A stretch of 64,000 nt of DNA. It comes from a virus. Lineage: Duplodnaviria > Heunggongvirae > Uroviricota > Caudoviricetes. The first letter of the stretch is position 1. Every line of letters begins with the position of its first letter. Positions 9,690-32,537 of the stretch are shown in pieces. Made by a program: the position numbers and the translations under genes. The notes below the pieces were generated by a model, which saw nothing but the letters and a program-made list of their open reading frames with translations, ran no database searches and had not been told where the DNA came from. Location of the stretch: positions 96,714 through 160,713 of IMG/VR virus record IMGVR_UViG_2529292852_000001. One strand, written 5' to 3'.

Positions 9690-9900
9690 CGTGCCACCCC
9701 TTGCCTGTACCTTTAGCTTAACCAATAGTCTACATGCTTGTTCATGTGGCTTAATTTTAGCCTTATTTTAGCTCTTATACTAACCTTGCTTATAATTACA
9801 CTCAAACACCAATACAAGCTCTCTATCATGCCTTTAGCTACGCTACAAGGCTCGCTGCTGCACCTACTCCCTGACCTGCAGCCAATGCTCCAATCATAAA
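9690..9900. repeat. Long hairpin linker repeat
   Basis: Shares CTTG..TATAATTACACTCAAACACC..TACAAGCTC..AAGGCTCGCTGC with the other linkers; lies between a terminator and the next promoter. Confidence 0.8.
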
Positions 9901-9934
9901 AAAGCAATGGCTCGCACCATCGCTCTTACTTTAT

Positions 9935-10327
9935 TTATAATTCACTTTCATCTAGTGGTAAAACATCTTGCAAATCTTCAAGTATTTCTTCTAACCAATC
10001 ATCTGAATACCAACCATAAAAACGCTCTGCAAGATATATATTTACTATATCGCTCTCATCACTGTATAGCTTTGCAAACACTTCCTTTATTCCATAATTA
10101 TTTATCCTTGCCTTTAACTCTGAGTCACAATCGTACGTTTCTAATTCTAACAAGTATTCGATACATTCCTTTGTGTCATATGCTCGCTTTAACTTATATA
10201 CTGTTTCTTTGCTCATCGCTAGTTCCTTGACGCTTGTTTCCTTGCTTATTAATTCCTTGATGTATCTCTCTAATAATACCTTTAAGTCTACCTTTTCTAA
10301 GTCATATTCTTTAAATACATATTTCAT
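9935..10327 (-). CDS. Hypothetical protein, paralog family X
   Basis: KLKRAYDTKE..L, RINNYGIKEVF and LQDVLPLD motifs. Confidence 0.8.
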   Translation of the reverse strand: MKYVFKEYDLEKVDLKVLLERYIKELISKETSVKELAMSKETVYKLKRAYDTKECIEYLLELETYDCDSELKARINNYGIKEVFAKLYSDESDIVNIYLAERFYGWYSDDWLEEILEDLQDVLPLDESEL

Positions 10328-10601
10328 GGTTATCTACTCCTTTTATCTAACGTTACTCTATATATTGAGTAAATTAATAAGGGCTTTTGTTTTATCCCTT
10401 CCTTAACTTACATATATATTATATAACGTTACTCTATATAATGCAAGTGTTTTTTATAAACTTTTTCAAAATAGTAAAATAAATGTTAGCTCCAGTCGGT
10501 ACGATGCAAGCACTACACAACCAATATTCAAGCACCAAAAAAGCCGTTGTCTTAACGGCTTAGTCTGTATTATTCTTTTTTTCTCTTTTCTAGTCTTTCG
10601 A

Positions 10602-10919
10602 TTAACCGTATATTTGACTGATAAAGTCGCCCTTATCAACTTTAAAGATGTTTTCGTTAGCTCCATAAGCGTCGCAATAAACGTTTATCCAAACTTCTTT
10701 TTCCTTACCGTCAAAGTACTTTTTAACGGCTTTGCTAATTGTTTTCAAAGCGTCCACATATCTTGACGGTGTTGTATTCAAAGCGTTGTCCCCTGTTTTG
10801 TCGTAAGGTTCAACCTCAACAACCAAAATACCATCAATTCTTTGATTAGTAACAAACACACTTCTTAACACTGAGTTCTTTCTTTTAACATTTAATAGTT
10901 CACTTAATTGTACATACAT
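10602..10919 (-). CDS. Hypothetical cassette protein
   Basis: 105 aa, with its own promoter (11009) and terminator. Confidence 0.8.
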   Translation of the reverse strand: MYVQLSELLNVKRKNSVLRSVFVTNQRIDGILVVEVEPYDKTGDNALNTTPSRYVDALKTISKAVKKYFDGKEKEVWINVYCDAYGANENIFKVDKGDFISQIYG

Positions 10920-11149
10920 GATAATCTCTCCTTTATATAACGTTACTCTATAAATTGAGTAAATTATTAAGGGCTTTTTGTTTTGCCCTTTCCTTAACTT
11001 ACATATATATTATATAACGTTACTCTATACAATGCAAGTCTTTTTTATATATTTTTTCAAAATAAAAAAGCGATGAAATTAATCATCACTCTATCTTTTA
11101 GTGCCAATCAATTTTTAGAATTGTCATTAAATTATCCTAAGTTTTAACT

Positions 11150-11500
11150 CTAATCTAGTGGCAAATCTTCATCTAGTGCTTCACACACACGAGACAACCA
11201 TTCAAAATCACCTTGTGCATAATCTTCTAAATAAGCATTATCAACAGATACTATAGTCTCAAAAAGTCGGCTCACTCCATATTTTTCAGCACGTTCTAGG
11301 ATTTTAGTATCGTCTTCAAAGAACGCAATAGCTAGGTGATACAATAAGTCTTTAGCATCATAATACCTGTTTATTTTAGCTATTATGGAACGATTGAAAG
11401 CCAAATCTTCAGCACTATTAGCATGTTTTGCTAATTTTTTAATTTCGTCTAATTTAACCTTATTTAATTCTTGGTTGAAAATTTCAAGTGTAATTGCCAT
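11150..11500 (-). CDS. Hypothetical protein, paralog family X
   Basis: KINRYYDAKDLL, RAEKYGVSRLF and LDEDLPLD motifs. Confidence 0.8.
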   Translation of the reverse strand: MAITLEIFNQELNKVKLDEIKKLAKHANSAEDLAFNRSIIAKINRYYDAKDLLYHLAIAFFEDDTKILERAEKYGVSRLFETIVSVDNAYLEDYAQGDFEWLSRVCEALDEDLPLD

Positions 11501-11654
11501 GGTAAACTCTCCTTTATAACGTTACTCTATAAATTGAGTAAATTATTAAGGGCTTTTTCTTTTGCCCTTTCCTTAACTTACATATATATTATATAACGTT
11601 ACTCTATATAATACAAGTCTTTTTGTATATTTTTTTATTTTGATAAAATAAATG

Positions 11655-11800
11655 TTAGTGCGATGTCTTGCCTTATCCTTAGCTTTATCCAAGCACCAAT
11701 TAAAGCCTTATACAAGCTCCTAGCTACACCAAAGGCACGCATAGCACCAGCTGCCACTCAATCATCGCACCAACTCAACCACAAGCACCACTCAAACAAA
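11655..11800. repeat. Shortened linker repeat
   Basis: GTGCGATGTCTTGCCTTATCCTT..TACAAGCTCCTAGCTAC shared with the other linkers. Confidence 0.65.
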
Positions 11801-11831
11801 AAAAGCAATGGTGTCAACCACTGCTTTATCT

Positions 11832-30445: not shown

Positions 30446-30490
30446 AAGCCTATGCTCACGCACAGACCCCAGCATATATGATATAATTTT

Positions 30491-30677
30491 ATCGTATCTA
30501 CTCCGAATATACGATACAGGAGCTGGTGATATTATCGACCAAGTTTTTGATTAAGCGTCGCCACGAACTGTATTGCCGTACAGTAGGATAGACGCATTAT
30601 CGCCAGTAACGATCGTGGCTGATATCCAGCTACCTTGCTCCTTACATAGTGAGTATAGCACGTTACTGGCTTTTTTT
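30491..30677 (+). ncRNA. Highly structured plus-strand sRNA with an anti-RBS loop
   Basis: TGaTATAAT at 30479-30487; several complementary pairs (AGCTGG/CCAGCT, CCACGA/TCGTGG, GCGTC/GACGC, GCCAGTAACG/CGTTACTGGC) and a final T7 tract. Confidence 0.65.
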
Positions 30678-30680
30678 CTA

Positions 30681-30897
30681 GTTTGTGCCAACCCCTGCCT
30701 AACCCTTGAGCTTAACCAATAGTCTACATGCTTGTTTATGCGGCTTGTTTTTAGCTCTTGCACTAATCTTGAATATAATTACACTCAAACACCTATACAA
30801 GCTCTTAGGAAAGCTCCTAGCTACTCCTCAAGGCTCGCTGCAGCACATAACCTACTTAACCATCGCACCGACTCCACCACAAGTACCACGCAAACAA
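30681..30897. repeat. Long hairpin linker repeat
   Basis: Core TTGAATATAATTACACTCAA at 30769-30788 with paired arms. Confidence 0.8.
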
Positions 30898-30929
30898 AAA
30901 AGCGATGAACCTAATCATCGCTCCAACCT

Positions 30930-31937
30930 TTATTTTACTTCGTATAATGTTTTTCTTCCATACGTTACCTTTTTAATGCCTTTAATCAAGATGTAGCCGA
31001 AAGGATTGTCTTTACTCCTGAACATCTCGGTAAAATCACTTGCTCCTCTCCTTGTCTTAATCGCATAGCTTGGAAAAGCGTAATTGTTAGAAACCAAGCT
31101 ACGATAATTACAATTCTTAAGCCCATCTACATCTAAGTCTAGGTCTACTACATTATGTCCTTGTTCATACACAACCTTGACTGTACGTGCATTATCTACC
31201 TTAGAGATATTTTTTAACAAGCTCAAAATCATCTCATCTTCATCACTTAGCTTGATGTTTCTTTCAACCTTTAATTTAACTTGATTGTCGATGTATTTTT
31301 CAATGTTGATGTCTAGGTTTGTTTTATCACTAACAAAACTACCTTTACTTGATAGATAATTATCTACTAGCTCACGTACATATTCTTTGTCATTAACTAG
31401 CTTTACATAATCGTATGCGTTTAGGTCGGTTATATATTCGTTATCTTTACCATAAACCGTTGTTCCTGTTTCAAAAAAGCTTGTCATTACTTTATCCATA
31501 AACGCTTTTTTGAACTCTTCTTCTGGGTCTGTTCTACTTTCAATTACACGCTTAACAAACGTTTCTTCATAAATGCTATTTAATTCTTTATCAATCGCCT
31601 TTTTTACCATGCGATTAAGGTTTTTGAAATTGGTTGCTCCTAGTTCTTTTGCTACTTTATCAAACGCTTGGTTAAATTCGTATATACTATAAATTCTATG
31701 ATAGTAGAATTGTTGGTTAGCCTTATCATAAAGCCCTATTAATTTTGTTTTTTCATAATTGCTCAAAGGTGTTGCACCTATCGCAAAATCAACGTAGCAA
31801 ATGTAGCTTATGTTTGCGATGTTTTCATTTGTTTCTTCATCAATCGCATTTATCTTTAACAAATTAGCATTCTTTAATGCTAGGATTTGTCTTTCATCAT
31901 CTTCTAAAAATGCTTTAAATTCTTTCGTTGTAACCAT
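30930..31937 (-). CDS. Hypothetical cassette protein (335 aa)
   Basis: Long ORF with its own promoter (32032) and terminator. Confidence 0.85.
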   Translation of the reverse strand: MVTTKEFKAFLEDDERQILALKNANLLKINAIDEETNENIANISYICYVDFAIGATPLSNYEKTKLIGLYDKANQQFYYHRIYSIYEFNQAFDKVAKELGATNFKNLNRMVKKAIDKELNSIYEETFVKRVIESRTDPEEEFKKAFMDKVMTSFFETGTTVYGKDNEYITDLNAYDYVKLVNDKEYVRELVDNYLSSKGSFVSDKTNLDINIEKYIDNQVKLKVERNIKLSDEDEMILSLLKNISKVDNARTVKVVYEQGHNVVDLDLDVDGLKNCNYRSLVSNNYAFPSYAIKTRRGASDFTEMFRSKDNPFGYILIKGIKKVTYGRKTLYEVK

Positions 31938-32122
31938 AGTGTATCTTCTCCTTTATTCCTTTTATTCTAACGTTACTCTACTTTTTAACCAAAGTAATAA
32001 GGGCTTGTACCCTTCCTTAACTTACATATATATTATATAACGTTACTCTATAAAATGCAAGTCTTTTTATTATCTTTTTTAATTTGTCTTTCTTTTTCTG
32101 CGTTGTCGTGCTATAATTCCCT

Positions 32123-32217
32123 TGTGCATGTAGAGGTATTATCTTTTCATTTAATTAAGTAATTTTATTGAAATACTTTTCCCTCACACTAGCTGATAGT
32201 GTGGGGGTTATTTTTTT
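32123..32217 (+). ncRNA. Candidate sRNA divergent from cassette promoter 32032
   Basis: TGcTATAAT at 32109-32117; terminator CCCTCACACTA/TAGTGTGGGGG plus T-tract. Confidence 0.5.
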
Positions 32218-32239
32218 GCCTTTAAGCAGCTTTGAATAC

Positions 32240-32537
32240 AATTACCTAAACCGTCTTTCAAGCTCCTATGTGAACTCTTAGCCACACTGTCGCACTAACA
32301 CCATCTCAACCTGGATTCAATCATCGCCTATGCCTATCTTGCACCCTGTGCTTACCATCGCCTGTACCTTTAGCTTAACCATTACTTTTTGTTGCTTGAT
32401 TTTGCCCTGTATCAGCCCTTGTTCTACCCTTGAATATAATTACACTCAAACATTACTGCAAGCTCTCACACAAGCTCCTAGCTACACTGTAAGGCTCGCT
32501 GCAGCACTTACTACATACAAGCTCTCACTTCAACCAT
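32240..32537. repeat. Long hairpin linker repeat
   Basis: Core CCCTTGAATATAATTACACTCAAAC and AAGGCTCGCTGCAGCAC. Confidence 0.75.

Follow-up and report, generated by a model that had tools for sequence, protein, structure and literature searches.

Introduction

Repeats of the ERIC (IRU), BOX and Correia (NEMIS) families are carried within neighbouring mRNAs and have been reported to affect transcript processing, stability or termination, and Correia elements contain AT-rich central boxes with promoter-like or protein-binding character. Repeats resembling these, hereafter called elements, are described here in a stretch of 64,000 nucleotides (the window), which covers positions 96714–160713 of the 180,095-bp record IMGVR_UViG_2529292852_000001. 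The record is filed as a virus record. By DNA similarity (PLSDB comparison) it is a Ligilactobacillus salivarius megaplasmid, and it has no phage match. The elements lie in the linkers between small gene cassettes, and our tentative reading is that they act, if at all, as hairpins in the gene-sense RNA.

Like ERIC, BOX and Correia repeats, the elements are imperfect palindromes of 100–200 bp, present as several diverged copies, some of them with a predicted central RNA hairpin, and confined to non-coding gaps. Unlike them, they belong to one plasmid lineage and one cassette array (6–8 copies), lie in one orientation and always behind a terminator, show neither terminal inverted repeats nor target duplications, differ so much that paralogues are 50–75% identical, and have arms made of units of about 12 nt. 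A miniature inverted-repeat transposable element was considered and rejected, on the grounds of this paralogue divergence, the single array and orientation, and ends that share only GTGC...GCAC.

The linkers themselves have a parallel in phages. The promoter-early stem-loops (PeSLs) of T4-type phages are terminator-plus-promoter linkers repeated between small genes, and they behave as recombining modules (PMC2839356, PMC4122927). As with PeSLs, a terminator-plus-promoter module recurs here between small variable genes, with exchange between linkers visible (PMC2839356, PMC4122927): the plasmid has 18 near-identical promoters with operators, homologous terminators (repeat family D10), and a linker that is kept between differing genes. 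In the phages, recombination between linkers shuffles genes and may give rise to mini-circles. PeSLs differ in being short, consisting of a stem-loop and a promoter without an extra element of about 170 nt, and in belonging to lytic phages rather than to a Rep3 plasmid.

To our knowledge, single-strand promoters have been documented so far only in Gram-negative plasmids. They form a stable stem-loop on the transferred DNA strand, the template for the genes downstream, in the leading region beside the oriT of conjugative elements. Frpo has its -35 and -10 boxes within the stem, where a single arm carries the two at a distance of 17 bp and both pair with complementary stretches, and a Gram-positive island included in the same survey had no sequence with significant similarity to Frpo (PMC11541004). 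The elements share with the Frpo and ssi sequences of F-like and IncI plasmids that they are non-coding imperfect inverted repeats, several per region (PMC11541004; Masai and Arai 1997 cited therein), located upstream of small co-oriented genes of the establishment or anti-defence type (PMC11541004). They differ from Frpo and ssi in having no stable single-stranded DNA (ssDNA) fold, boxes that are not contained within one stem arm, a pairing bias that favours the non-template strand, no similarity to known Frpo/ssi sequences or to other PLSDB plasmids, no relaxase or oriT found, and a duplex promoter for each gene. The single-strand origins (sso) of rolling-circle plasmids and ICEBs1 are, like the elements, orientation-specific, imperfect, non-coding palindromes of 150–300 nt in Gram-positive plasmids. 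The differences are that the present replicon is of the theta type, that it has many copies instead of one, that ssDNA folding is absent, and that no Rep_trans was found. In ssoA, a conserved CS-6 sequence (TAGCGT) occupies the terminal loop. A CS-6-like TAGCGT was present in copy 9663–9901 only, outside the loop, the other copies reading GTAGCT or GTGGCT.

Results

A family of inverted repeats behind cassette terminators

An nhmmer profile built from the copies detected six full and two partial elements, all on the minus strand, and none elsewhere in the replicon (Table 1). All eight thus have the orientation of the genes, and the seven further copies in the related L. salivarius plasmid NZ_CP123973.1 (166.6 kb), which shares the cassette region (PLSDB comparison), are likewise oriented like the local genes. 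Each copy starts right behind an intrinsic terminator's T-tract, and a conserved cassette promoter lies downstream. A reading made from the sequence alone (the sequence-only reading) had described such repeats between a terminator and the next promoter, and the profile search and the terminator and promoter scans confirmed them. It had also listed two shorter items: that near 11655 is a genuine partial copy, and that near 17815 is a mere remnant of the G/T-rich lead, without core.

An element consists of a core of about 165–180 nt and a G/T-rich lead. An imperfect inverted repeat round TTGAGTGTAATTATATTCAA (as read on the minus strand) occupies its centre. On the sense strand AAG (CTT on the plus strand) recurs every 11–13 nt, and TRF reports arrays of period 11–12 inside the elements, so that each arm resembles a set of degenerate units, about 12 nt long, with the two sets inverted about an AT-rich box. 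The elements are decayed inverted repeats, non-coding and restricted to one lineage. Short open reading frames (ORFs) do overlap some copies on one or the other strand; a coding role was rejected, as the frames are not conserved and the indels are not multiples of three.

The periodicity, together with blocks of invariant sequence in gaps that are probably for the most part untranscribed, would suit an iteron array bound by protein on duplex DNA, with inverted sets of 12-bp units serving as centromere-like sites or as sites for a global regulator. We regard this as highly improbable. The single ParA gene, at a distance of about 50 kb, is not accompanied by similar repeats, neither ParB_N nor TubZ was found, the indels of 13–27 nt between conserved blocks would upset the phasing, and the strong strand asymmetry of the elements would be left unexplained.

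Conserved linkers between variable genes

A pattern scan of the whole replicon found 18 promoters of the form TTGCAT-N17-TATAAT, all on the minus strand. Sixteen lie in the window between 4593 and 33257, and the other two at replicon 12708 and 14127. Each carries a TAACGTTA operator within the spacer and a second operator downstream, and the 18 near-identical promoters form one putative repressor-controlled regulon of small genes. No regulator was identified, either for these promoters or for the central box of the elements. The promoter motif had no match in IMG/VR, and its sole match in PLSDB was NZ_CP123973.1. Nine of the 16 promoters in the window are without an element.

Three linkers contain in addition a small RNA (sRNA) unit on the plus strand (Table 1). 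All three units have a canonical TGnTATAAT box as well as an intrinsic terminator, diverge from the cassette promoter and end at the edge of an element. In these loci the unit separates element from promoter, and convergent terminators bracket the element. The sRNA unit at 30441–30683 was 99.6–100% identical in related DNA, and 30479–30677 was 100% identical in the related plasmid.

The plus-strand units are relevant to a further explanation, in which the element is an antisense insulator: a C-rich, G-poor plus-strand transcript, with a C about every 12 nt, would load Rho and so keep plus-strand transcription out of the upstream cassette. Sources of such transcription could be the neighbouring plus-strand sRNAs or symmetric cassette promoters, and three elements do lie directly behind plus-strand terminators. 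The plus-strand C/G ratio of the elements is 1.6–2.5. RhoTermPredict defines a RUT site as about 78 nt with C>G and a C every 11–13 nt (PMC6407284), and the CTT spacing on the plus strand agrees with this lax definition, as does much of the plus strand of the replicon. The skew is only 1–2 standard deviations from the replicon mean, with many windows more extreme, and a rut site requires neither conserved sequence nor inverted symmetry. Rho loading is thus a very unlikely purpose of the elements.

Comparison with related DNA showed that the terminator-element-promoter linkers are conserved and that the genes between them are variable. The linker at 16445–16958 matches positions 6072–6653 of L001 in the related plasmid despite different flanking genes, and the order of the cassettes differs between the window and NZ_CP123973.1. 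Swaps of blocks among paralogous elements are visible as well, and copy 11666–11770 is a deletion derivative. Conserved linkers around differing genes, taken with this mosaic exchange, suggest that the elements spread inside recombining linker modules.

Predicted folding is significant only for the centre, and only as sense RNA

The sequence-only reading had taken the repeats for hairpins of 200–300 bp and had proposed folding each strand as ssDNA as a check. Both strands were folded with RNA and with DNA parameters, and significance was expressed as z relative to dinucleotide shuffles. As ssDNA, whole elements (n = 13) folded no better than shuffled controls on either strand (mean z +0.23 for sense and +0.58 for antisense). 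The corresponding values for RNA were −1.10 (sense) and +0.11 (antisense), so that no hairpin of the proposed length was apparent. Significant folding was limited to the central stretch of about 53 nt read as sense RNA: the mean z was −2.12, 12 of 20 copies had a z of −2 or lower, and the energies ranged from −10 to −19 kcal/mol. The same stretch gave mean z values of −0.21 as antisense RNA, −0.31 as sense ssDNA and +0.13 as antisense ssDNA, and with DNA parameters it was essentially unfolded on both strands (0 to −5 kcal/mol). In the reference copy, 30667–30869, the hairpin reached −15.5 kcal/mol as sense RNA (z −3.7) and −1.0 kcal/mol as ssDNA (z +0.45); in copy 30215–30421, z was −0.69 as sense RNA. 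The large raw energy gap between strands is mostly compositional, G being about twice as frequent as C on the sense strand. If any single-stranded form is relevant, it is the gene-sense RNA and not DNA.

It had also been noticed that C/A oppositions on the plus strand become G-T pairs on the minus strand. This is correct for the drawn helices, in which minus-strand G.T occurs in 71 cells versus 11 for A.C and is the majority state of six columns, A.C of none; the excess is partly a matter of composition, given the twofold G over C. In an alignment of 20 copies (A3), 84.9% of cells were paired, versus 83.7% in shuffles, a value reached by two of 500 shuffles, and changes on both sides occurred at eight pairs, versus 4.5 in shuffles (reached by five of 500). 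Variable helix columns alternate between G-C, G-U and A-U, for instance at pairs 57-85 (GU 12, AU 8), 61-82 (UG 12, CG 7) and 52-90 (GC 11, GU 6). An open search for all conserved covarying helices returned only promiscuous G/U-rich pairings.

Promoter-like boxes at the centre

Two pairs of opposed boxes had been quoted by the sequence-only reading from two copies, TTGTAT-N17-TATATT on the minus strand (30800–30772, with a TATAAG variant at 9817–9789) and TTAGCT-N17-TATAAT on the plus strand. Both are present as quoted in both copies. An excess over chance was not confirmed: TTGTAT and TTAGCT match TTGACA at three of six positions, below the threshold of the scan, and these regions hold no excess of promoter-like sites (6 versus 11.7 expected, and 42 versus 40.2 expected). 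By eye, about nine of the 20 copies in alignment A3 preserve the minus-strand TATATT. The same alignment shows TATAAT on the plus strand without change in 16 of 20, and nearly all have TGTAAT as the hexamer in the sense direction. The 5' arm holds TTGTAT, the 3' arm TATATT close behind the loop, and the plus-strand TTAGCT and TATAAT straddle the tip in the same way, so that in the folded form the hexamers would face each other in one stem.

The frequent preservation of the plus-strand TATAAT raises the possibility that the element works as duplex DNA, its AT-rich central box being a promoter- or operator-type site that either fires an RNA from TATAAT or binds a regulator of the plasmid. The product would be a short, C-rich antisense RNA running into the terminator of the upstream cassette, which is partly bidirectional. 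Stand-alone copies of the box (TTGAGTATAATTATAC, TTTAGTGTAATTATATCC, TTGAATATAATTATACCCC; TTGAGTATAATTATACCC and similar) occur in plus-strand orientation at three places, replicon 96152 and 96279 (L138:16152 and 16279) and window 1365. Such lone boxes keep the duplex promoter or operator alive as a rival. The box at window 1365 is in a plausible promoter position, about 70 nt upstream of a plus-strand ORF with a Shine-Dalgarno sequence. In copy 16701–16896 the plus strand has a promoter score of 10/12 at 16801–16829, plus-strand terminator-like sites occur at 13188–13205 and 32544–32565, and the invariance of the box across lineages fits recognition of a sequence. Against it, the plus-strand -35 is poor (TTAGCT or TCAGCY, 2–3 of 6), the TG is one base too distant from the hexamer for a canonical extended -10, and a promoter leaves unexplained why about 100 nt upstream of the putative -35 are also conserved and complementary to the putative transcript. 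Duplexes between the predicted plus-strand RNAs and the 16 cassette 5' regions were no better than shuffled controls, and the box lacks an identified regulator. On balance a duplex function is doubtful.

The ORF downstream of the box at window 1365 is Rce1/CAAX-protease-like (1444–2250), and its leader resembles the start of the 3' arm of the element. A sigma-54 reading of the conserved TGGCAC was rejected because the -12 GC is at the wrong spacing, and Chi-like and LexA-like motifs were rejected because their positions are not conserved.

The proposal of single-stranded DNA as the active form

The principal proposal of the sequence-only reading was that the elements are ssDNA hairpin promoters or priming signals of the Frpo, ssi or sso type, active on a transferred or displaced single strand. 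Some features are in its favour: elements lie upstream of small cassettes, including an ArdC-like gene, the genes all run one way, as in leading regions, and -10-like boxes are found at the hairpin centre. The folding results above speak against the proposal, since neither strand folds better than its shuffles as ssDNA and, with DNA parameters, the central hairpin is nearly without stability. Moreover, the better-pairing strand is the gene-sense, non-template strand, whereas an Frpo serving these genes would need the template (plus) strand. The boxes lie on opposite arms across the tip, are weak and are not conserved, and each cassette already has a strong duplex promoter.

A single-stranded stage of the plasmid was not established either, as relaxase, type IV secretion system (T4SS) marker and rolling-circle Rep_trans were not found and the plasmid has Rep3 and iterons. 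Profile searches of the replicon gave no match to PF03389 (MobA/MobL), PF03432 (Relaxase), PF02486 (Rep_trans), PF01076 (Mob_Pre) or PF02534 (T4SS-DNA_transf), and VirB4-type AAA_10 (PF12846) had only a sub-cut-off match, inside a 950-aa FtsK/SpoIIIE-type protein. Replication is most simply read as theta type from the Rep3 initiator and its iterons, and NZ_CP123973.1 is typed as non-mobilizable in PLSDB. The AgI/II-type adhesins and the FtsK-like protein may leave room for an unrecognised transfer system or relaxase. With no ssDNA folding, the wrong strand, weak boxes placed across the tip and no established ssDNA stage, a role as single-strand promoter or origin is scarcely likely, and we abandon it.

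The fallback offered with that proposal, a long structured leader RNA, fared better in part. The centre is indeed significant, as minus-strand RNA only. The term leader does not apply: the elements lie upstream of the cassette promoter and so cannot be leaders of the downstream gene, and if transcribed they would be trailers of the upstream cassette.

Relatives and divergence

Besides the copies in the window and in NZ_CP123973.1, further copies were found on five metagenome loci (L182, L196, L242, L225 and L246), the only real ones among 73 loci matched by a gapped pattern in metagenomes. In a blastn comparison of one copy with 72,556 plasmids, the match was in one L. salivarius plasmid only, and species genomes, IMG/VR and other plasmids held no real relative of the elements. 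The gapped pattern gave 43 matches in species genomes, all false by nhmmer, and a 14-mer scan of viral contigs gave 119, all due to chance. No Rfam family matched at gathering thresholds; a permissive scan gave only a chance-level GAIT match. The 335-aa protein flanking an element has 41 homologues (46–96% identity), and no loci related through it were present in viral contigs.

About ten paralogue lineages, 50–75% identical to one another, make up the family, and orthologues are 82–100% identical. Conserved blocks are interleaved with variable, indel-rich stretches, the indels between blocks being 13–27 nt long. Between orthologues, columns that paralogues conserve changed at half the frequency of the others (10% versus 22%).

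In NZ_CP123973.1 (W01) the cassette region is present twice, inverted, at about 14.8–22 kb and 159.4–166.6 kb (x pairs with 181427 − x). The record is marked linear, and the doubling is either a genuine large inverted repeat or an assembly artefact.

Gene setting

The minus strand carries nearly all genes, and the stretch with the elements is rich in small genes to which no function was assigned. PLSDB matches of the replicon are mostly shared insertion sequence (IS) elements. An IS200/IS605 unit at 13260–15463 (TnpB at 13490–14887, tnpA-like ORF at 14953–15393) is inserted between the cassette promoter at 15570 and the cassette terminator at 13184–13209, and is 99–100% identical to copies on many L. 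salivarius plasmids. In the type III restriction-modification system, the gene for the restriction subunit precedes a tandem pair of N6/N4 methylase paralogues with 72–90% identity in patches (families D5, D7 and D18). A HEARO RNA (Rfam, 119 bits) adjoins a 324-aa ORF at 28464–29713 on the minus strand. The related plasmid annotates a longer IscB there, and the local copy is probably truncated. Salivarius-1 RNA (Rfam RF03030) has four matches, at 36401–36901 and 48053–48107 on the minus strand. An 807-aa protein encoded at 49154–51577 on the minus strand combines kinase-like AAA_33, Metallophos and T4-type RNA ligase domains, a Pnkp-like RNA-repair architecture.

Table 1. Features of the cassette region and of the replicon. 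Positions refer to the window unless marked as replicon.
Feature	Position	Strand	Evidence
Full copy, G/T-rich lead and ~180-nt core	9663..9901	-	nhmmer, E 1e-55
Partial copy, both outer flanks present, central hairpin deleted	11666..11770	-	nhmmer, E 7e-7
Full copy, preceding the ArdC-like gene's promoter	12962..13169	-	nhmmer, E 1e-47
Full copy, low-coordinate edge touching the terminator of a plus-strand small RNA unit	16701..16896	-	nhmmer, E 6e-46
Remnant, terminator-proximal G/T-rich lead only, without core	17822..17960	-	repeat families D19 and D20, versus 16861-16958
Full copy, 3-nt deletion degrading the apical stem	30215..30421	-	nhmmer, E 9e-53
Full copy, reference copy of this analysis	30667..30869	-	nhmmer, E 1.5e-52
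Partial copy	32204..32291	-	nhmmer, E 3e-5
Full copy	32319..32541	-	nhmmer, E 2e-52
Central hairpin of copy 30667-30869, 9 + 3 + 7 pairs, many G.U	30753..30805	-	
Intrinsic terminator of upstream cassette, element directly behind	30899..30924	-	terminator scans, repeat family D10
Homologous terminators	9900-9927, 11802-11827, 13184-13209, 16946-16972, 32538-32567		
Cassette promoter with internal TAACGTTA operator	30121..30149	-	whole-replicon pattern scan
Plus-strand small RNA unit, TGATATAAT box, strong terminator, between two elements	30479..30677	+	
Similar plus-strand small RNA units	16546-16698, 32109-32215	+	
ArdC-like gene	11832-12797	-	Pfam ArdcN and metallopeptidase
Type III restriction-modification system	17971-23743	-	
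Rep3 initiator	25215-26021		Rep3_N and Rep3_C
22-bp iterons	26249-26539		
AgI/II-type LPXTG adhesins	replicon 21563-35730		
FtsK/SpoIIIE-type ATPase, 950 aa	replicon 43573-46425	-	
ParA gene	replicon 57132-58049	+	AAA_31

Discussion

The account that we favour, and hold tentatively, is that of an intergenic palindromic repeat of the ERIC/BOX/Correia kind residing in PeSL-like linkers; its effect, if it has one, would come from a sense-RNA hairpin in transcripts that run through the terminator. Modules of terminator, element and promoter would spread and persist by recombination between linkers, as PeSLs do. When the upstream terminator is read through, the central 53 nt or so of the RNA would fold into a G.U-rich hairpin, which might provide a processing or insulation point between cassettes, as in ERIC, BOX and Correia repeats. 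Should the element have an activity of its own, the most likely carrier is RNA of the gene-sense orientation. Both the transcription by read-through and the insulating or processing role are what we infer from this arrangement.

A number of observations weigh against a role for the hairpin. No promoter transcribing the sense strand of an element was found, and since the elements come right after T-tracts, with three of them bracketed by convergent terminators, their sense transcription depends on predicted read-through. Whole elements fold weakly as sense RNA, the central hairpin is not significant in eight of 20 copies, and the excess of G.T pairs owes something to the G-richness of the strand. 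In the structure drawn by hand for 13 copies, 86.9% of cells were paired, the same as in shuffles, with no double changes beyond shuffles. Covariation in the central helix is weak even with 20 copies, because several double changes have locally unpaired surroundings, sliding the partners by three columns as a control gave ten double-change pairs, and the apical pairs 65-78 and 66-77 (A3) are broken in 9–11 of the 20. Many stem positions are invariant across the ten or so lineages, so that recognition of the sequence fits as well as recognition of a structure. Between orthologues, the cores have diverged by 4–10%, as much as the flanking genes or more. Finally, homology with NZ_CP123973.1 stops just upstream of the promoter of the 335-aa gene, and the related plasmid therefore appears to be without an element there; to judge from this alignment, the element looks dispensable.

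Several of these observations would be expected of a functionless relic, that is, an old inverted duplication in the linkers whose copies are kept similar by gene conversion and decay under strand-biased mutation, its use being at most to provide extra homology for cassette shuffling. Cores that diverge as fast as neighbouring genes or faster, mosaic block swaps, partial and deleted copies, weak covariation and the many cassettes that have no element all agree with it. A relic accounts poorly for blocks that stay invariant across lineages otherwise 50–75% identical, for the twofold lower substitution rate at columns conserved among paralogues, and for a central hairpin that is significant as sense RNA in most copies (12/20). 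We consider a pure relic unlikely.

Rather improbable, too, is a new, plasmid-specific functional module of non-coding DNA behind terminators, either an insulating or processing sense-RNA hairpin or a gene for C-rich plus-strand RNAs started from the central TATAAT. If it were true, an anti-defence or establishment array on a Gram-positive megaplasmid would have, besides PeSL-like shuffling of its cassettes, a level of regulation provided by the module. A Gram-positive analogue of single-strand promoters would have been notable, and the evidence presented here argues against one. What remains is a tidy case of conserved terminator-element-promoter linkers around some 16 small genes of a lactobacillus megaplasmid, in a layout that resembles the shuffling cassettes of T4-type phages and that is useful for annotating this plasmid family and for selecting intergenic pieces to study.

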